Source: a phage. From it: 64,000 bases of DNA. The translations under genes and the position numbers were made by a program. The notes under the pieces are model-generated. The model was not told where the DNA came from. It ran no database searches and worked only from the letters and a program-made list of their open reading frames with translations. The stretch lies in sequence record PZ445446.1; one strand, written 5' to 3'. Shown here piece after piece: positions 6,171 through 60,610 of this stretch; within the stretch, counting starts at the first letter, position 1, and the number at the start of each line of letters is the position of its first letter.

Positions 6171-7916
6171 ATGGCGCAAGACATGACAAGCTTTGAGCAG
6201 GCGGTAGATCAAGTAATTGTTGATTCTGAACGTTTGCACCTGATTGTCAACGGTAACGCTGTGGATGAAGTTGTCGTAGAGGATGGGACCACCATCCCTA
6301 CGGTACGAAAAGCCATGCTTGACACCCTTTATTTTAAAACGCCACCGATCCCTTGGGCGTATGGTGCATCCACAACAGTTTTTAACCAGCTGTACGAGTT
6401 TAAAGGGGACACAGGCCCTCAGTGGTGGTACGCTCCCGCAGCATCAAAATCTAACCCGGTTAGAATGCCAGCAGATCCTTCACAATCTCCAAACTGGAGA
6501 TTATATACCGATTCTGCAGTAATGGCAAAATACTACGCAAAACTTAACAGTCCGAGGTTCGAAGGTGACCCGCGAGTACCTACGCCTCCAATGGACGACA
6601 AATCCGAGTCTATAGCAAACACAGAGTTTGTTGTTGACTATGTGGATAGCATATTTGAAGCCATGGAGGGAATGAAAGTTACTGTAGGGTCTTTGGTGGT
6701 AAAAGGTCTTACAGAACTTGCTAACACTATAGTTGGTGGCACACTCACCTTACATGGGCCTGTTAATGGAGCAGATTCTACTGCACGCTTCAGGAACCTA
6801 ATCCTCACGGCAAATACTTCTACACTTACTTTTGCGTGGAGTGATCCTAAGCATGCAGACTGGAGAAGCACAGAGCTGCAACCTCATGAAGTGTCCACCC
6901 ACAGGGTTATAGCTGACACTATAACTTCTGGGAAACCAGTGGCTAATAATAACGATGTGCATTTTGATGGTCTAGGTAATAACTTTTTTGACTACGTGTA
7001 CATTCGTGGTAATGCCATGAAGGCAGCAACCGAACCGACATTGCAGGTAGATGGAACCACCAGGGTTAAGAACCTTGAGGTGACAGGCACTGTTACAGGG
7101 ATAACCTACTCTGTCGATGGCACCATGATTTACCCTAGCTATATTGAAAGCACGGGGGACGCATTAATAAATGGTGATTTAGAAGTTGGCGGATCTGTAG
7201 TTATTCGAGGTACAGCCTCTATCCAAAACATAGCTCTGAATACCCTAAGAGTCAATGAGCGTGCAACTTTTGAAGGGAAAGGGCTTACAGCCAACAAAGG
7301 TGTAATTACCGAGCTGACAACCACTACTTTAACTGCAACAACTGCAAACTCTGAAAACTGCAACGTTACCAGAAACTTACAGGTAAATGGAGATGTTAGT
7401 TTAAACGCAGCAGGGACGGGCACCACCTACCTTCACAACCTTGAAATATCCGGCACAGTGACTGGGTGGCTGCCAGACTTCTCTAATGTCAACTTTGTTT
7501 GTAATGGCATTAACTCCAGTGGCAAGATAACCACCTCTCAAGAAATTGAGGCGGGTAAAACCATTACTGCCCCTACTTTCCACGCAGGAAAGGTAGATTT
7601 TGATTTAGAGGAGGTTGACGCGTCCAGTGGGACATGGACACCTAACGGGCAGGCCAGTATGTATGTTGTCCACGCGAAAGGGGATTTTACAATAGGACAA
7701 TGGCCTGGTACATCAGCGGAAGATAAACCTTATCCATTCACTGCGGTTATCTATGTCATTCAGGATGCTGTAGGTCACAACGTGACTTTGCACGATAAGT
7801 ATGCTATCCTGTCGGCAACGCCTGTTATTAATAACAAGGCTAATAGTGTTACCTTGCTGCAATTAACATATTGTGGTGTTGGTGATATCGTAGACGTAGT
7901 AATTGCACAACGTTAA
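6171..7916 (+). CDS. tail fiber/tailspike protein
   Basis: 581 aa; long G/T/N/V-rich beta-repeat region; AGGAGA RBS. Confidence 0.55.
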   Translation: MAQDMTSFEQAVDQVIVDSERLHLIVNGNAVDEVVVEDGTTIPTVRKAMLDTLYFKTPPIPWAYGASTTVFNQLYEFKGDTGPQWWYAPAASKSNPVRMPADPSQSPNWRLYTDSAVMAKYYAKLNSPRFEGDPRVPTPPMDDKSESIANTEFVVDYVDSIFEAMEGMKVTVGSLVVKGLTELANTIVGGTLTLHGPVNGADSTARFRNLILTANTSTLTFAWSDPKHADWRSTELQPHEVSTHRVIADTITSGKPVANNNDVHFDGLGNNFFDYVYIRGNAMKAATEPTLQVDGTTRVKNLEVTGTVTGITYSVDGTMIYPSYIESTGDALINGDLEVGGSVVIRGTASIQNIALNTLRVNERATFEGKGLTANKGVITELTTTTLTATTANSENCNVTRNLQVNGDVSLNAAGTGTTYLHNLEISGTVTGWLPDFSNVNFVCNGINSSGKITTSQEIEAGKTITAPTFHAGKVDFDLEEVDASSGTWTPNGQASMYVVHAKGDFTIGQWPGTSAEDKPYPFTAVIYVIQDAVGHNVTLHDKYAILSATPVINNKANSVTLLQLTYCGVGDIVDVVIAQR

Positions 7917-7924
7917 TATATATC

Positions 7925-7955
7925 TAACCGCTCCTGACGGGGCGGTTTTCTTATC
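7925..7955 (+). terminator. putative intrinsic terminator
   Basis: AACCGCTCC-tgac-GGGGCGGTT hairpin then TTCTT between fiber gene and giant gene. Confidence 0.45.
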
Positions 7956-7966
7956 TGGAGAACACA

Positions 7967-10900
7967 ATGCTTCCAATCCCTTTGCTAAAACTTGGTCGTC
8001 ATTTCCTCGATAAGAGGGGTGGAATTAAGGAACTTGCTGTTCTGTCATACCCAATAGACAACAGTGATGGTACAAGCAACACAGTATCCTATGTAAATAG
8101 CTTAGCTATACTTTTTGATGATGGTCAGCTTAATATTACTGGCTATAATAGGTTCGGAGAGTGTCGGACTGGAGATCTTGATACAATAAACTATCCTAAT
8201 GAGGCAGCTTGGAACGTAGACCATGTTTGGAGAGCTGACCGTGCATTTGTAATCCGCACATTCGATAATAAATTTTTCTATATTGGTTGCACAGCTGGTC
8301 TTATCGGATCGGAGGCAGCAGGTGGAAACGATGTTTGTGTCAGAGAGTGGACACCTTTGCCGGAACAGATCGTAACAGGGTTGCATTTGGACACCCATCC
8401 TGAGAGACTTGTTGAAGTAATGGGTGGCGTAAACAATACAGTGTGGGTAATTGCTGCACCAGAGGCTGATGGTATGCTTCACCTGTACGGCTCTGGCAAT
8501 AATACTTACGGCTCTCTTCATGTTGACAAAAATCAGCATGCAACCCCTGTAAAGATTGGTGAGACATCGGAAAATCCTGAAACAGGTCCTTGGAAAAACC
8601 CAAGCATCAACTGCGAGGTGCATGACAACTCTGTTATTTTCGGTGGTCCTAGAGGTTTCTGGATTGCTGGATACGACTTTCTGAGAAATAACAGTAGAAA
8701 CGACCTTGTTTGGCCTCCTGTGCAGATTACTCGTAACGATTTGAGGGGCATTCCTGCAGATGAGGAGTGGAAAGGGTTTATGTGCGGTCCTAACGGGGCA
8801 ATAATTGCCACACAGAGGATGCATAGACCCGATGACCAGCAGCTTGTTAACGTATTTTATGGTCAAAACATTTGGGGAGATGATACATGGCGGGAACTGA
8901 ATATCACCTACACCCATGAGGTAATAATGGCTCGTGGGTACGGCACAAGTGGCATTTTCTTCAATAATGGCACCAAGCAGTATCGTGGATTCTCTCGCAA
9001 CTTGTGTAATGATATTGGTGCACAATCTGCAAACAATAGTCCTAGGTCCGATTTTATCCACTATCAAGCTCTTGCTACAGCTAAATATGTTGAGCAACGC
9101 CTGCCAGTTAGCTGGACAGAGAGTGTTTATTTCCAAGGCATCCATAGAGAAGGTTTCTTAGGGACCTTTACTGTTGTTAATGGTAAACTTTGGTGGTCAG
9201 GCATCCCAAGGGGAAGTTTTGCAGGCTCTAACAACCTGTTTGGAGGCAGACTTAATAGCCAGGGGTTCACAGAGGTTCCTGAGAATTGGTATAAAAATGT
9301 CCCGGTAGACAGTTGGGGTGTTGAGGATATTTTCGACGTTAACGGTGTTAGCAGCGTTAGCAATATTTACATTGGTGACACGGTCAAGATGAAGTTGAAG
9401 CCTCAGCCAGAGGGGGCTACGTTCATTATTGACAAGATTGAACTGGTAAATGCTGCAGGTACGGTTGTTACAGATGCAAATTACCAATTCTCCACCAACT
9501 GGAACCACGGCGGGGCCAACGAAGTTGTTGTTACCCAGTATAACAGAAATGTTAACAGACGTGGCCTGTACTCTGTAAAAATAACCTATCATGACAAGCA
9601 TGGCACAGGCAGAACCCATACGACAAGGACTTTGAACTGGAACACCATAGTTCCTGCGTATCCGTCCAACGGCAAGTGGCATACTGTCGGTAGAAACAAA
9701 CAGTTCCATGTCAACGATACTGTATACTTCGGGCTTAACGCAGCTCAACCTGCTGTAGAAGGCGATACATCGTATATAGTACGACTCCATAGAATGGATG
9801 CCGGGTCTGTAACCTACGATGTGACTCAGGAGATCTACGATCAGAGACGTACCACGTATGACAATGTTGTGAAAACACAAGCCTTGTGGGAGTTCAACCC
9901 TAACGGCAGAGGCGGTAAAATGTTGCAGGTCAACGAGCAAAACGGGACATCGTTGACTGTCCATGAACATCCAGATCCTTGGCCTGATCCTGGAAAACCT
10001 AACTCTGGTGCTCGTACACTGAAAATTGTTAGCCATGATGCAGGATATTTCGGAATACGCTGGGAAGCCACAGTAAGATATGCCGACGGGACAACAAACA
10101 ACATAGGGATCACCCTTGATGGCACTAGTGAGGATAACTCCCTGAAAATTGCCTACACCCCTAGGGGCATCTCTATTGACAACATAGATGTTGTTCGCAA
10201 CGGTTACGGCGATGTGAATGTCAAAGTTACTCTTGGCGAACATCTTGGTGGGGAAAGGATCATCATGTATGCCTTTGATCATGATCCGCGCACCAATGGG
10301 ACTTATGCAAATCAGGCATGGAGTTATCTGATAAATGCACCTGAGCCGAATACTAAAGAGTTCTACTACGGTATGAAGCGAGATGTGTGCAAGAAAACAG
10401 GAACACATGACTGGATTGCTATCTGCGTTAAAGATGAGCGCACAGCTTGGGATGAGCCTGTTAACAGATGGTTCATAGGTATTCCTACCAGAAGTGATAA
10501 GTATGTCGCAGAATATATTGTATGCATGGGCGGTACCAACCTAAACATGTGTTGGAACGAAGATGTAAACAAATACTCTGATTATGACTATATGAGGGAT
10601 TACTCTTGTAATTTGTGGTTTAACCAAACTACAGGTTACCCTCCGCGTCAGGCAAGGGTAAATCCTGCAATCTTTACAGATACGCAGGTTTTCTTGACAA
10701 AACAGGCCAACGAGGTCCAGACCTTCAAGAACAAATACGACCCTAATAAGTGGTTCTATAACTGCTATGGGGCATTTTTCTGGGGACCTGGAGAATTACC
10801 TGGTGGTGGCTCTTGTTTTGAGGCTGCAACTTACGCCAGTGACAGATTTATGGGCCAGGTCAAGAAATACAAGATAATTCCAGGGCCTGAAACTTTAGGC

Positions 10901-56976: not shown

Positions 56977-57042
56977 TACAACAAGTTACATGGTCAGGGG
57001 CAATAAAGCCCCTTGATCACATAAAAATTATGCTATCCCTGG

Positions 57043-57071
57043 TTGACAGGGATCGGCAGTTTTGCTATATT
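57043..57071 (+). promoter_or_regulatory. sigma70-type promoter TTGACA-N17-TATATT
   Basis: 78 nt upstream of ATG 57121. Confidence 0.55.
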
Positions 57072-57120
57072 CTTTTTTGAAGGGAAGTTGTAAGAAAATT
57101 AACTAAGAGGTAAAAACACC

Positions 57121-57540
57121 ATGAACATTAAATCTAATAATCCGGCATATAGCTTTGATAACGCTTTTTGTCACGGTCCGGCGGCGAAAGGATTCGAAAT
57201 CGATGGTAAACTAATTATTGTCAATGTTGACGGGGAAGAGGTTGCAGTATATCCGGTGGCAGACGTAAAAAGCCGTTTACAATGCCGCATGGATGTTACC
57301 GCCTATCAGCTTGATCCGGTCCGCATAGTTGCCCTGGTCCTGGAAGAAGAAATTAAAGCCATGCACCATAGCAACAGATTTATTGGTGACGCGCAGGATA
57401 ATATGAAAGTATGCCGCCATAAAGTTAATGAAGTGCTTAAAGAGTACGGCTATAAAGATCTTATGATCAAACGTGAGGAAAAATTCCGCTACCGTAACGA
57501 CCTGGCAAATCGGATTTTTGAAATATACGAATCATTATAA
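57121..57540 (+). CDS. hypothetical protein
   Basis: 139 aa; AAGAGG RBS after TTGACA-N17-TATATT promoter; strong terminator follows. Confidence 0.5.
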   Translation: MNIKSNNPAYSFDNAFCHGPAAKGFEIDGKLIIVNVDGEEVAVYPVADVKSRLQCRMDVTAYQLDPVRIVALVLEEEIKAMHHSNRFIGDAQDNMKVCRHKVNEVLKEYGYKDLMIKREEKFRYRNDLANRIFEIYESL

Positions 57541-57557
57541 TTTTTTAACTGAATTAT

Positions 57558-57586
57558 CAAGGGGCTTAGGCCCCTTTCTTTTTGTC
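57558..57586 (+). terminator. intrinsic terminator ending rightward small-gene module
   Basis: AAGGGGC-ttag-GCCCCTT + TCTTTTTG after stop 57540. Confidence 0.7.
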
Positions 57587-58200
57587 TGCTCTTCTCCTAC
57601 CATAAACGGCCCTACCTGGCAAGTGGAATAATTGACTAGCCATCAATCCCACATACTGTACAAATATACATGGAAAATAACTATTGCATAATTTTTCATT
57701 GTGTGGTAGCAAGTCCATTTTTACCCGTTTTCTCTCCCAAAAGTGCACGTAATGCCGCTATTGCACAAATTTTAACCTGATGCACATCTCCAATATCTTG
57801 TCAACAACTAAAAATCTTTATAAGTCATACACTTACACAGCATCGAAAGCGTGTTCTACGCGAAAAATCGAGTATAACTATAGCCGCCAGATCTCAGAAT
57901 TCACGTACGCACGCCATTCTATAGCCTGCAAAGTATTTATTCCAACCACAGAATAACGGAATAGTCAATACCTGCATAAAATAATTATTCGTGTAAACTG
58001 CATAACATAAATCAGCTCAGGTGTCAACATTTTTCGTAAACAGTCCGAAATTATCACGATGAGCTATCATAAACAGAGAAATATTTAGTCGTCTAATGTT
58101 TACTGTACATTACTATACTGACTGGAATCATTAGATGACTAAGAGAAAGATAAGAAATAATTAATAATGTAATTATTTTACCTGTAACAATAAGGCAACT

Positions 58201-58494
58201 ATGCAAACGAATGGCATGGCGCGACGGAGTCGCGACATAATATAAAAGCAGTAACCATCACCCCCGTGATAGTTTGTCTGCAAACTATTAATCAGATCAT
58301 AGTTGCCTTGTATTTAGTTAATCATGACATAACAAGCAAGGCAACTATAGATCTTCTAATAGTTGCCCTGCTTTTATATTATGTCATAGGAACGCCCGAA
58401 GGGGTGACCTAGTCACCTGGTATAGCCAGCGAAAGATTATTAACTTGTCGATTGTTATCTTGTTAATTGTTTTCATGCAAACGAATGGCATGGC
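58201..58494. repeat. 20-bp direct repeat pair (atgcaaacgaatggcatggc)
   Basis: Copies at 58201-58220 and 58475-58494. Confidence 0.6.
58234..58387. repeat. 18-bp perfect inverted repeat pair (gacataatataaaagcag / ctgcttttatattatgtc)
   Basis: Arms at 58234-58251 and 58370-58387. Confidence 0.6.
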
Positions 58495-60060
58495 TTATCA
58501 TCTATGCGTGAACAGTGAGGCATGCAATAGTAACAATTGTTATTGTATCCAGTGTGTTGAGTATGCCCAGTGTGTCACTATTATGTCATATTATGTCACA
58601 GTATGTCAGACAAGTTTTCCTCCTCTTTGTCAAGTGCTGCATGAAAAATTTACAAGCTTGTATGGTAGCATTTTTGCGGCCCTGTTTACATTCAGTGTTG
58701 TATGTATAATCCTTGTTGTGTGGGCGTTTAGACGTCTGGACGGTCAGAAGTTTGCAGGTCAATATCTAATCTATTGGCTGCTAACTATATCCCCCACAAA
58801 TAATAAGAAATATAATTGTTATGTGCGTAAACAGTAACCCATGTTATCAATCCCTGTATGTATCGCCAGTGGTGCGCATAATGGGTATTATGTTAAATTG
58901 CCCGTAATGATAACAGTTCTCACAATGATAGGTATTCTCATTCATCCACACAAAATAGGTTGCAAATGTTGTGCCACTGTGTGAACGGCCTGGCCTATTA
59001 ATTTCTCTCACTGCCTCGATATTTGAGAATTGTTATAAGAATGAGAAGTATTCCCATTCCGTCCGCCTGGCAGCACTCCAGTAGCTACCGGCTCCTGACA
59101 GGGCAGCACTCCTGTAGGTCAGGTCAAAATCGTGGTAGAATTGGGCCTGTTCAGATATTTCTGACTGACTCTTCAGATCTGTGTGGGAAAAGCCAACCTC
59201 TCCGGAGGGGCAGGGGAGGTCAATTAAAAAATTTACGTGGTGTATGAAGCGCTCTTCAGGTAAGGCATGTATTATGGGATGAAACCCTCTTCAGGCAATG
59301 ATATTTGTGGGTGTGATATTTGCTGGAAAGCCAGATATGACGGGACTCCCGGCGGGGATGGGGTAGTACAGACAGGGAAAATATGGGGATGTAGTTGGGT
59401 AAATTGATCAGACAGGTAGAGTATGGAATATGTTACAAGTATGTTAAATAGGGAGGATGAATATCTGCAGGATTTGTGTGTAAAATCAAAGACTTAAGTG
59501 GTGTTGTGGTATTTTCTATAAATAATTCAAGTTTAATAGGTAATATTTGTCTCTATCCACTTTGTGTGGTAAACAGATTCAGATGAAATTGGTTTACAAG
59601 TGTATACATAATATACAAATTAAAGATACAAGAAACCCCCCTCCCCCTTCGGCTACCATTCACCTTTTCCTCTGACTGGTACTTAAACACTTATTCAGAC
59701 TCTTCAGGTTATCACCCATATATCATATGGCAGTGACTGGTGTCCTCCGGCCCCTCTTTCGTCACCCGTCCGCTTCGCCATGCTAATGCCATAGCCAATG
59801 GTTCGGTTGTTCACTCTGTTCACTCAGGTGTATCTCCATACCCCTTCAAACCGAAGAGAACAGAAAACCCGAATTACTCGGTAAAAGAAAAGAGAAGAAC
59901 TTAATTTTATCAGGATAGGCAAGAATGTCAAGGCATGACTGCTCACTAAACAAGCAAACAGTCATGTGTGGAAGGTAAGTGATTGTGGTGGTGGGAAATT
60001 TAGTTGAAAGATGTGTTATAGGTGCGCTTCCAGCACTTTGGCCGGGCAGCTAATTGTGTG

Positions 60061-60276
60061 TCAGTCCAGCGGTTCATCCTCTACTTCACTGAAATCAATG
60101 TTCATGGTCTCCTCCCAACCATCGATCTCAGCACAAGAGTGGAGTTCTTTAGGGTTTACTCCCAAAGCCTCAGCAACAGAGTCTATATTTAACACCTCTG
60201 GCAGGTATGATTCATCGAATTCAAGGTAAATCAGGCCACGAGTGTTGTCAGCTCCACCAAATATCTCTATCTTCAT
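60061..60276 (-). CDS. small acidic protein
   Basis: 71 aa, Asp/Glu-rich; last gene of leftward array. Confidence 0.45.
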   Translation of the reverse strand: MKIEIFGGADNTRGLIYLEFDESYLPEVLNIDSVAEALGVNPKELHSCAEIDGWEETMNIDFSEVEDEPLD

Positions 60277-60397
60277 GAAATCTCCTCTGGAAATGAGAGT
60301 GTGAACAGGGTTTTATACGTTCTAATGCACAGGAATTATACACGTTTGCCTCTTCAGGCCATGCTTTAGCATGAGGAACCTGTGTGGGCTCGGTGCT

Positions 60398-60610
60398 TCA
60401 TAGTCTACCACCTCTGAACTCTTCGTGCTCAGGCATAATAGAGAACCAGATATCTACGATGTCCTCCCACGTCAGGTCATCAGCCTCAGGATCTGTCTGG
60501 GACGAAGATGAAGAGTCCTCAGAATCTAAGTTTTCCTCTTTAACTGGCTCATCCAAGGGACATATGGTCACTCCTTCGGATGTCTCTTCAGATGCATGTG
60601 TGTTGATCAT
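60398..60610 (-). CDS. small acidic Ser-rich protein
   Basis: 70 aa; poly-Ser and D/E-rich. Confidence 0.45.
   Translation of the reverse strand: MINTHASEETSEGVTICPLDEPVKEENLDSEDSSSSSQTDPEADDLTWEDIVDIWFSIMPEHEEFRGGRL

Follow-up and report, generated by a model that had tools for sequence, protein, structure and literature searches.

A putative genome-terminus locus with a conserved, strand-biased fold in an rV5-like phage

The phage DNA analysed here (record PZ445446.1; the whole stretch of 64,000 nucleotides is called the window) contains 2,520 bp without genes, located at 57541-60060 and bounded by convergent gene arrays, and raises the question of what a repeat-dense locus of this kind is used for. 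The window is derived from an rV5-like Vequintavirus, to which 119 phage records are related at 90-99% identity. The first-pass annotation had marked 57590-58840 as a gene-free span between convergent transcription units and had proposed that it is a protein-binding hub such as a replication origin, a packaging site or a partition-like site. The gene arrays do face each other across 57541-60060, and the absence of a credible gene is borne out. However, the stretch is longer than was thought, and the proposed span ends in the middle of a terminal repeat, so that the second boundary at 59067 was left out.

The longest ORF of the region (58475-58837, 120 aa) was rejected as a coding sequence because the window and phage CM1 alone have it intact, while the 16 other relatives sharing its start retain only 10-54 aa of it. 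A 14-aa 'leader peptide' starting at 58201 was likewise rejected, with only 3 aa of it present in the L005 clade, and a tRNA search found none. In the rV5 map, as given by Kropinski et al. 2013 (PMC3606486), the same locus appears as a 'non-coding' box of 2.5 kb between genes 163 and 164; according to the same source, a gp4-type primase-helicase and a PolA-type polymerase are among the products of the rV5 genome. An IMG/VR search with a neighbouring protein returned only 3 loci, while pattern scans of metagenomes and genomes gave chance matches for the most part, along with 5 rV5-like contigs.

Putative genome ends and the arrays beside them

The features that define the outer architecture of the region are as follows.

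57559..57576, plus strand: intrinsic terminator closing the plus-strand gene array (last gene 57121-57540), a stem-loop AAGGGGCTTAGGCCCCTT followed by a T run; the Murica and EdH4 annotations also have a terminator here
57577..58190, unstranded: conserved non-coding spacer, 90-99% identical and with 0 indels in 20 relatives
58495..58572, plus strand: remnant of array A, 15-16-bp units YGTRAAYWRT of the GTAAACAGT type, of which the window retains one (58507-58516)
58573..58609, plus strand: array B, four (T/G)RTGTCA units at a spacing of 10-11 bp, the last of which adjoins the terminal-repeat boundary
58609..59067, unstranded: putative direct terminal repeat (DTR), present once only, the arrangement of a concatemer junction or circular assembly; physical ends placed at 58609 and 59067 from the EdH4 repeat, record starts of relatives, conservation and the KPP-1 boundary
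59069..59117, plus strand: two GGCAGCACTCC(A/T)GTAG copies, 33 bp apart, just beyond the outer repeat boundary, with variable copy number and spacer

Comparison with the records of related phages suggests that the region is most probably the genome-terminus (concatemer-junction) locus of an rV5-like phage. The linear record of EdH4 carries an identical 459-bp sequence at both of its ends, which maps to 59067->58609 of the window (the evidence comes from records of relatives and not from reads of the window genome), and the repeats of EdH4 and HdK5 share 95-97% identity with the interval 58609-59067. A terminal redundancy of 458 bp is given for the Vequintavirus phages EdH4/HdK5 by Korf et al. 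2019 (PMC6563267). The records of HdK5, ECP2309, bov11CS3, bov25_3 and Pr121LW, several of them from other submitters, start exactly at the DTR boundaries. Two of these (HdK5 and ECP2309) also contain the repeat twice; the records of YN3 and ECP2303 show two places as well, but with a neighbouring query only.

Alignment of 21 genomes reveals that the DTR interval is 92-99% conserved and free of indels whereas both of its flanks are hypervariable. Indel-rich DNA is confined to 58359-58609 and 59059-59150, which is just outside both boundaries, and conservation changes sharply at both 58609 and 59067. To the left of the variable DNA, the spacer ends in an AT-rich stretch (24% GC at 58080-58190), and only the part from 57778 to 57887 can be aligned with the L005 clade.

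The inner boundary is also recognizable in another genus. KPP-1, a Klebsiella phage of the genus Mydovirus, has a T7-like DTR of 514 bp as defined from PhageTerm and 2x coverage (PMC9862379), and position 58609 falls in the same alignment column as this PhageTerm-defined DTR end. For the outer boundary at 59067 no homology with KPP-1 is detectable, and the flanking-gene proteins of the window and KPP-1 show no similarity. The inner boundary is marked by the motif CTTGACA-(purine-rich)-TTGTC|TGACA (minus-strand spelling), which is also present in Seunavirus and Henunavirus. The earlier suggestion of a packaging site is partly right, as the reported physical ends of relatives map in and beside the region, while nothing was found in favour of a partition-like site. 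Contrary to fixed ends, two PhageTerm-based papers describe Vequintavirus genomes (the bov phages; BpE1AUH) as circularly permuted or headful. Circular permutation is also reported for Certrevirus. In addition, the CM1 record contains a 523-bp tandem duplication (58545-59067), by which array B would fall inside the repeat and which counts against the 459-bp boundaries.

The only hypervariable DNA of the region adjoins both DTR boundaries, and on the left side it consists of the two arrays, A and B. The relatives carry between 1 and 8-10 units of array A, spaced 15-16 bp apart; the array A motif has 4 matches in the window, 3 of which lie inside the non-coding region. Array B contains 2-5 units in the relatives, the last one always followed by ACAAGTTTT. 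It is absent from Mydovirus/Seunavirus, where dispersed TTGACA blocks are present instead. In the window, three consecutive phased TGTCA-N-TGTCA occurrences are located at 58573-58608, and the total of 4 compares with 1.07 expected and is reached in 1 of 100 shuffles. The 'at least six' TTATGTCA-type units noticed earlier are obtained only if 1-2 mismatches are allowed; exact copies number four in the region (58325 on the minus strand; 58379, 58581 and 58591 on the plus strand) and six in the whole window.

From this arrangement, the terminase would be expected to cut at both DTR boundaries, 58609 and 59067. The phased TGTCA array together with the inner-boundary motif would be the most likely recognition and cleavage signals, presumably through terminase binding. 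The short-repeat arrays on either side freely expand and contract.

A folded module inside the left boundary

The repeats between the spacer and array A had been taken for a hub of separate protein-binding sites. Our analysis suggests instead that a single conserved, strand-biased fold, with compensatory substitutions across genera, accounts for the inverted repeat and the AAGGCAACTAT copies, which form its stems. The elements of this part of the region are listed below.

58201..58220, plus strand: direct repeat copy 1 (ATGCAAACGAATGGCATGGC), 20 bp; left end-point of the FV3 deletion
58226..58391, minus strand: conserved multi-branched folded module, from the covariance model, fold z-scores and conserved arms
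58234-58251 / 58368-58385, minus strand: P1 outer stem (18-bp perfect inverted repeat), both arms exact in 20 of 21 relatives
58253-58274: hairpin A of the module, followed on the minus strand by CTGCTTTTAT
58299-58310 / 58337-58348: P3 stem of the module
58334-58348 / 58359-58373: alternative 15-bp hairpin, followed on the plus strand by TTTTATATT; annotated as a terminator in Murica and flagged in Alma
58393..58436, unstranded: GC-rich triple-hairpin cassette containing GGTGACctaGTCACC, an optional insertion present in 12 of 21 relatives
58475..58494, plus strand: direct repeat copy 2, 20 bp, exact; right end-point of the FV3 deletion

Every repeat noted earlier is real, apart from slight errors of position. 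The 18-bp perfect inverted repeat does exist, but its second arm had been placed 2 nt too far to the right. The occurrence of AAGGCAACTAT in both orientations is confirmed at 58192 and 58338 on the plus strand and at 58299 and 58359 on the minus strand, the last with one mismatch. The 20-bp direct repeat is exact at 58201-58220 and 58475-58494, and the palindromes GCGACggaGTCGC (58221-58233) and GGTGACctaGTCACC (58403-58417) are present. With up to one mismatch allowed, AAGGCAACTAT occurs 8 times in the 64-kb window, where 1.44 matches would be expected and 0 of 100 shuffles reach 8, and the AAGGCAACTAT pair of the window sits in P3 of the covariance model.

Judged from sequence comparison, the fold is very probably a real conserved element. 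A covariance model, R1, trained only on Mydovirus/Seunavirus sequences, matches the window at 58226-58391 on the minus strand with 25 bits (E = 2.7e-4 over the whole window), the sole match with E <= 0.01, while the same interval on the plus strand gives 15 bits (E = 0.1). The model also recovers the L005 clade (E = 1e-7), whose module had no match in a BLAST search against phage records, and it scores a Henunavirus sequence on which it was not trained at 117 bits, where P1 is completely different in sequence and still paired. P1 and P3 of the window are also paired, though their sequences differ from the training set. Across 9 lineages the outer arms are perfect over 17-21 bp, in at least 5 sequence variants. 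In P1, 10 of 18 pairs are changed on both sides and none on one side only, and the P1 pairing percentage is partly by construction because the arms were located by a perfect inverted-repeat search. Pairs were counted by script on a chosen subset, since one alignment combines opposite strands at certain loci. The RNAalifold prediction comprises 56 pairs, and compensatory changes are seen in P1, P2 and P4.

Folding is stable for a sequence of this composition and depends on the strand. Compared with shuffled sequences, the folding energy of 58185-58400 as RNA has z = -7.9 and -8.1, and that of 58225-58395 as ssDNA has z = -10.3. In all 8 of the 8 genomes compared, the strand running from the terminus inward outfolds its complement (alifold energies of -78.2 vs -64.7 kcal/mol), a bias that is also seen in the window and in L005. 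The MAFFT alignment contains 24 G.U cells against 1 C.A cell.

The module is found in at least five groups, namely Vequintavirus, Mydovirus, Seunavirus, Henunavirus and one further clade, and measures roughly 150 nt in the window. Its distance from the cut-equivalent is 223-403 nt over 10 lineages (223 nt from 58609 in the window). The same terminus-relative position in at least five genera, together with internal hairpins kept by compensatory change, argues for purifying selection on the structure. In FV3, a viable phage, the whole module is cleanly deleted; the module is therefore dispensable and cannot be essential for packaging or replication. The optional cassette at 58393-58436 is found at another locus in IMGVR_b. 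Small GC-rich hairpin cassettes move around within the region.

Possible roles of the fold and rival explanations

On balance, we lean towards reading the region as a concatemer-junction/packaging locus that includes a structured, strand-specific element in an accessory role. The folded element would act in cis, as a single strand with a polarity from the terminus inward, which could be ssDNA on the lagging-strand template of inward-moving forks or RNA of the same polarity. By comparison with the inverted repeat beside the T7 concatemer junction, it might assist end formation, duplication of the terminal repeat or priming near the end, and would be accessory and not essential. This role is put forward tentatively, as one possibility suggested by analogy.

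The strand bias of the fold might also be explained by a structured ncRNA gene, transcribed on the minus strand from the terminal-repeat side inward and serving regulation or packaging. The G.U pairs are strand-biased, one polarity consistently folds better, the fold z-scores are high, and the local hairpins P2 and P4 carry compensatory changes as in RNA families. Array B moreover contains promoter-like minus-strand sites, of which 58609->58580 scores 10/12 and has an upstream TG. However, no promoter is conserved across the relatives, and the array B units of most phages are without the -10-like CATAAT; sigma70 promoters in array B or at the boundary TTGACA were ruled out because their -10 elements are not conserved. 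There is also no conserved terminator after the module (the L005 clade is without a U-rich tail behind hairpin A, and no terminator was seen downstream of the module in Mydovirus/Seunavirus when the sequence was read by eye), and the outer stem is without any G.U intermediate in 9 arm constructs aligned by sequence alone. Rfam 15, which includes the phi29 pRNA, has no match with E <= 1 in window positions 57000-60600, and gives only chance-level matches on KPP-1, all of them outside the module. A literature search for Vequintavirus transcriptomes found no transcript data, which was also counted against an ncRNA gene, and we regard this explanation as unlikely.

Another reading of the tandem phased short repeats, which adjoin an AT-rich stretch, is a replication origin in which arrays A and B are initiator iterons, the 24%-GC stretch at 58080-58190 is the unwinding element and the module aids opening or priming. 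The cumulative GC-skew extreme falls here. The sister L005 clade has 2-3 perfect DnaA boxes in its terminal-repeat equivalent, and the folded strand would be the lagging-strand template for inward forks, which fits a priming signal. However, in rV5 the GC/AT-skew switch at 104425-105475, which overlaps the DTR-equivalent at rV5 104973-105431, coincides with a change of transcription direction according to its authors (PMC3606486). The iterons would have to vary from 1 to about 10 among phages 93-97% identical, with a single array A unit in the window; furthermore, the module is missing from FV3 and no initiator gene was identified. DnaA boxes (TTWTNCACA) form no cluster within the repeat-dense region or the DTR; a lone match at 59477 is all that the 2.5-kb non-coding region contains, and the DnaA box TTATCCACA has a single 8/9 match at 58942, with no cluster in the window. 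We consider an origin at this place improbable.

It is also conceivable that the inverted repeats are back-to-back intrinsic terminators, which stop the convergent units or keep transcription out of the terminus. The rV5 authors expected genes 163 and 164 to be separated by a bidirectional terminator (PMC3606486). On the plus strand the 15-bp hairpin at 58334-58373 is followed by TTTTATATT, in agreement with the Murica annotation and the Alma flag, and on the minus strand the hairpin at 58274-58253 is followed by CTGCTTTTAT. However, the plus-strand gene array already ends in the strong terminator at 57559-57576, 800 bp upstream. In the L005 clade as well as in Mydovirus/Seunavirus, conservation extends to the long-range P1 and the multi-branched architecture but not to the U-tracts, and simple terminators need no outer stem of 17-21 bp spanning 80-220 nt, all of which makes this explanation very doubtful. 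An attenuator formed by alternative pairing of the AAGGCAACTAT copies (1:2 / 2:3 / 3:4) was considered separately and dropped because neither the leader ORF nor the U tract is conserved.

A degenerate miniature transposable element (MITE-like) without function for the phage would account for the perfect 18-bp terminal-type inverted repeats with 20-bp direct repeats on either side, the clean absence of the module from FV3 and the mobility of small GC-rich hairpin cassettes in the region, but is scarcely credible, as the direct repeats lie 13 and 89 nt from the inverted-repeat arms and not adjacent to them, there is one copy per genome (one in the window by model R1), and at least five genera share its position relative to the terminus, the internal hairpins being maintained through compensatory change.

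If the reading as a concatemer-junction/packaging locus is right, it has practical consequences. Isolations of rV5-like phages are frequent, and cocktails for therapy and biocontrol include them, yet reports on their packaging mode disagree (short terminal repeat vs headful) and most deposited genomes have been opened arbitrarily. Ends at 58609/59067 and a cross-genus boundary motif would provide a simple rule for genome orientation, annotation and the judgement of transduction risk, and the locus would show where engineered or rebooted genomes must retain cis elements. The passages searched in PMC6563267, PMC9862379 and PMC3606486 give repeat length or ORF absence only and describe neither the boundary motif nor the variable arrays nor the fold. 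As far as these passages go, the module had not been described before; it is a conserved structure with good support, located next to the end of a phage chromosome. Nature has already supplied tests of the module in the FV3 deletion and in the compensatory variants, and the long-standing problem of the duplication and recognition of short terminal repeats could become approachable in a second, unrelated phage group.

Comparison with known systems

The EdH4/HdK5 repeats and the 'non-coding' box of rV5 represent the same locus as that of the window. Outside this group, phased short repeats bound by the small terminase beside the cut site are present in lambda cosB, SPP1 pacL-pacR and P1 pac. Array B resembles these sites in that it consists of several 5-7-bp cores, about one helical turn apart, directly at the putative cleavage position. 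It differs from them in its copy number, which varies from 2 to 5 among close relatives, and in its replacement by dispersed TTGACA blocks in other genera.

Folded single strands active in priming or packaging are represented by G4 oric, plasmid ssi/sso and phi29 pRNA. The module is similar to these in being 140-250 nt long, multi-stemmed, strand-specific and near a genome end or origin. However, it is without sequence or Rfam similarity to them, and the phage DNA enters as a duplex. The module is dispensable in FV3, whereas phi29 pRNA is reportedly essential.

The concatemer junction of T7/T3 is said to comprise a short DTR, flanking SRL/SRR arrays and pac signals, together with an inverted repeat at a distance of about 190 bp from the DTR, for which a hairpin priming the duplication of the repeat has reportedly been proposed. 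Unlike T7/T3, the phage studied here is a 137-kb myovirus without a phage RNA polymerase, and its genes converge on the junction whereas those of T7/T3 all run one way. The structured element is a multi-branched fold of 150-250 nt and not a simple short palindrome, and there is no sequence similarity. The two systems nevertheless have in common a terminal repeat that is short (a few hundred bp) and exact, short direct-repeat arrays beside the repeat boundaries, and an inverted-repeat element a few hundred bp off, in unique DNA and on one side only; the replisome is also T7-like, as judged from the gp4-type primase-helicase and PolA-type polymerase of rV5. A bolder conjecture, which we consider somewhat unlikely as a whole, is that the module is the earliest recognized example of a new class of strand-specific, multi-branched RNA or ssDNA associated with termini, which the Vequintavirinae as a whole would retain 220-400 nt inward of the left terminal repeat and which would improve end formation, terminal-repeat duplication or priming. 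Such an element might be the functional counterpart, in large myoviruses, of the T7 junction hairpin or the phi29 pRNA.

Genomic setting and coding potential

The repeat locus lies in a gene-free interval of 2,520 bp (57541-60060) with the following borders.

Up to 57540, + strand: array of small genes to the left of the interval
57559-57576, + strand: clean terminator 3' of this array
60061-60276, - strand: last gene of the - strand array to the right of the interval

The rV5 map carries a 'non-coding' box for the same interval, and the switch in GC/AT skew seen there was ascribed by its authors to the changed transcription direction (Kropinski et al. 2013, PMC3606486). Megablast with 57500-59200 matches 119 phage records, which are 90-99% identical and without exception rV5-like Vequintavirus. 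Eighteen are labelled 'Campylobacter phage' with C. jejuni as host (MG0656xx, e.g. MG065646.1); they share 93-96% identity with the coliphage region and probably represent contaminants or wrongly assigned rV5-like genomes. The sole long ORF (58475-58837) is intact in the window and Shigella phage CM1 only, and 16 other relatives with the same start retain 10-54 aa of it; the region is therefore truly non-coding, as the first-pass annotation had proposed in finding no credible gene.

The last + strand gene (57121-57540, homologue of rV5 ORF164) is about 83% identical among relatives, below the 90-99% of the adjacent non-coding DNA. Highest conservation of the whole region is found in an ORF-free stretch of 350 bp (59609-59959, 98-100% identical in 20 relatives), which opens with a near-consensus sigma70 promoter-like site on the minus strand (59931->59904, TTGACA-16-TAAAAT, upstream TG) directly followed by a minus-strand hairpin and U run (59881->59869). 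This stretch may be a small RNA or regulatory leader.

Terminal repeat and its boundary arrays

A terminal redundancy of 458 bp has been described for the Vequintaviruses EdH4 and HdK5 (Korf et al., PMC6563267). The EdH4 record begins and ends with an exact 459-bp repeat, corresponding to window 59067->58609, and the first base of the HdK5, ECP2309, bov11CS3, bov25_3 and Pr121LW records is exactly the equivalent of 58609 or 59067. Independent sequence support for these ends comes from the alignment of 21 genomes across 3.8 kb used for conservation, in which the 459-bp repeat is free of indels and 92-99% conserved while hypervariable, indel-rich DNA is restricted to 58359-58609 and 59059-59150, directly outside both boundaries of the direct terminal repeat (DTR). 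In Klebsiella phage KPP-1 (Mydovirus), a 514-bp DTR was defined by PhageTerm and two-fold coverage (PMC9862379); it too is placed where small genes converge on a gene-poor gap. The alignment column of 58609 is exactly the inner DTR boundary of KPP-1, and the motif CTTGACAARGAG...TTGT, ending at the boundary (terminus-to-inward strand), is common to both and is also carried by Seunavirus and Henunavirus. No counterpart of the outer boundary (59067) was detectable in the alignment with KPP-1. The first-pass guess of a pac site was thus correct in substance, as the genome ends of relatives map here; contrary to this, two announcements using PhageTerm call Vequintavirus genomes permuted or headful.

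In the deposited CM1 genome, 523 bp are duplicated in tandem (7046-8091, corresponding to 58545-59067 of the window). The duplicated unit consists of the terminal repeat and a 64-bp TGTCA array and has only the outer boundary in common with the 459-bp repeat. The duplication is either an assembly artefact of the terminal repeat or evidence of a 523-bp repeat in the CM1 lineage. In the sister clade of L005, L028 and L055, two or three perfect DnaA boxes (TTATCCACA) are clustered inside the terminal-repeat equivalent (L005 6845-6884; L028 6430-6457; L055 2619-2646).

The stretch from the second 20-bp direct repeat (58475-58494) to the DTR holds two tandem arrays, A and B, and further units are present beyond the DTR.

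Array A: 15-16-bp units, YGTRAAYWRT; one unit in the window
Array B: 10-11-bp units with TGTCA core; 2-5 copies
Outside the outer DTR boundary: 16-bp unit GGCAGCACTCC...; one or two copies, variable spacers

Array A reaches at least eight units in rV5, Murica, slur12 and IMGVR_b. The final unit of array B always adjoins the repeat start ACAAGTTTT, and GTATGCCTAA units hold the same position in the L005 clade. Phased TGTCA units are enriched, as are AAGGCAACTAT-type motifs (8 observed against 1.44 expected; 8 reached in 0 of 100 shuffles). Every repeat of the first-pass list was found in the sequence, but the 18-bp inverted repeat has its second arm at 58368-58385 rather than 58370-58387, and the TTATGTCA units, counted there as at least six, have just four exact copies in the region. 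Small-terminase recognition sites of lambda, SPP1 and P1 are phased short repeats touching the cut site; array B resembles them in this respect, and by analogy we infer that its units may be bound by small terminase.

GC-rich cassettes of about 45-80 bp with two or three mini-hairpins also occur, their presence varying by site in otherwise collinear non-coding DNA, and look like small mobile palindromic insertions.

Window 58393-58436: shared by 12 of 21 relatives; IMGVR_b has it at a different locus
L006 (compared locus) 8319-8362
L028 5626-5706
L075 (Mydovirus): P4 loop of the folded module
Relatives: about 59085

Conserved folded module

The segment 58170-58390 is almost invariant inside the rV5 clade, both 18-bp arms of the outer stem (P1) being exact in 20 of 21 genomes, and the predicted fold of 58185-58400 is stabler than shuffles by 8-10 standard deviations. 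In the more distant L005/L028/L055 clade (IMG/VR and metagenomes) the architecture is kept with different sequence: P1 is formed by GACATAATAACGCTGAG / CTCAGCGTTATTATGTC where the window has GACATAATATAAAAGCAG / CTGCTTTTATATTATGTC, and the CCCC-loop hairpin is rebuilt on another stem. In KPP-1, an inverted repeat that is perfect over 21 bp (AGCGACACAATAACACGGGAG) is found 311 nt inward from the DTR, and BLAST shows the surrounding non-coding DNA to be conserved in Mydovirus, Seunavirus and beyond. Outer arms are perfect over 17-21 bp in 9 of 9 lineages with at least five sequence variants, and arm constructs show two-sided change in 10 of 18 pairs and one-sided change in none, figures to be read with the caveat that the arms were located by searching for perfect repeats.

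RNAalifold on a MAFFT alignment of eight full Mydovirus/Seunavirus modules predicts 56 pairs, comprising P1, the P2 hairpin, a 13-bp P3 and the P4 hairpin, with compensatory changes in P1, P2 and P4. A covariance model built from these eight matches the L005 clade (E = 1e-7 to 9e-5) and, run against all 64 kb of the window, gives a sole match with E <= 0.01, which covers minus-strand positions 58226-58391 (25 bits, E = 2.7e-4 for that search space). An untrained Henunavirus genome scores 117 bits with an entirely different P1 sequence and all pairs kept. In the model-based alignment, the AAGGCAACTAT / ATAGTTGCCTT pair (58299 / 58337) is P3, substituting for GTGTTATCGTGGC / GCCACGATAACGC with every pair retained. 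Across ten lineages, 223-403 nt separate the module from the cut-equivalent position; the module matches no Rfam family. By covariance modelling, the inverted repeats are parts of one conserved folded element. The earlier picture of a protein-binding hub is unsupported, the inverted repeats and AAGGCAACTAT copies being predicted stems of that fold.

The rV5 genome has a 33-bp insertion (TAAACTCAGGCATAGCCTTCGTCTCGAGGATGT) in a loop of the module, between the equivalents of 58330 and 58331, with stems intact. A weaker match in L007, a 153-kb IMG/VR contig (6023-6160, 19 bits, E = 0.016), falls on an inverted repeat that is perfect over 15 bp (GCTAATAATAAGCCA / TGGCTTATTATTAGC) where flanking genes continue in the same direction, and may be a further divergent member.

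Strand polarity and interpretation

In the eight-sequence alignment, the terminus-to-inward strand (window minus) shows 24 G.U cells but only one C.A cell, and in all eight genomes it folds more stably than the complementary strand under RNA as well as DNA parameters (consensus energy -78.2 against -64.7 kcal/mol); the window and L005 have the same bias. These asymmetries point towards a single-stranded species of terminus-to-inward polarity. One candidate is an RNA transcribed inward from the repeat side; another is ssDNA, because inward-moving forks that start at the end would use this strand as their lagging-strand template. That the module is a structured ncRNA gene, as the strand-biased G.U pairs and better folding of one polarity would allow, seems rather unlikely to us, as no conserved promoter or terminator was found for it in relatives, including the L005 clade and other genera.

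FV3 (junction 1520-1550) is a natural knockout, having cleanly lost exactly 58221-58474, the whole module, through recombination of the 20-bp direct repeats on either side of it (58201-58494 equivalent). At least one viable phage thus does without the module, so it can be neither an essential pac site nor the only origin. Together with the varying array copy number and the lack of a perfect DnaA box in the window at the place matching the L005 cluster, this deletion leaves the first-pass guess of an origin unsupported and makes an iteron replication origin quite improbable. Back-to-back terminators, plausible in the window, are unconserved elsewhere, and we consider this explanation of the inverted repeats very doubtful. 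A selfish mini-element is scarcely credible, contradicted by fixed position and structural covariation.

The best-supported reading of the locus is a concatemer junction, with a short terminal repeat whose boundaries would carry the signals for recognition and cleavage; the flanking arrays are unstable. Earlier work had established the non-coding box and, for two relatives, a repeat of about 458 bp; as far as term searches in the papers cited here and Rfam show, the cross-genus boundary motif, the arrays marking both boundaries and the conserved folded module are new. It is suggested by analogy that the accessory, strand-specific fold would help in end formation, repeat duplication or priming. 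In T7, an inverted repeat is located beside the concatemer junction, and we regard this as the nearest described parallel.
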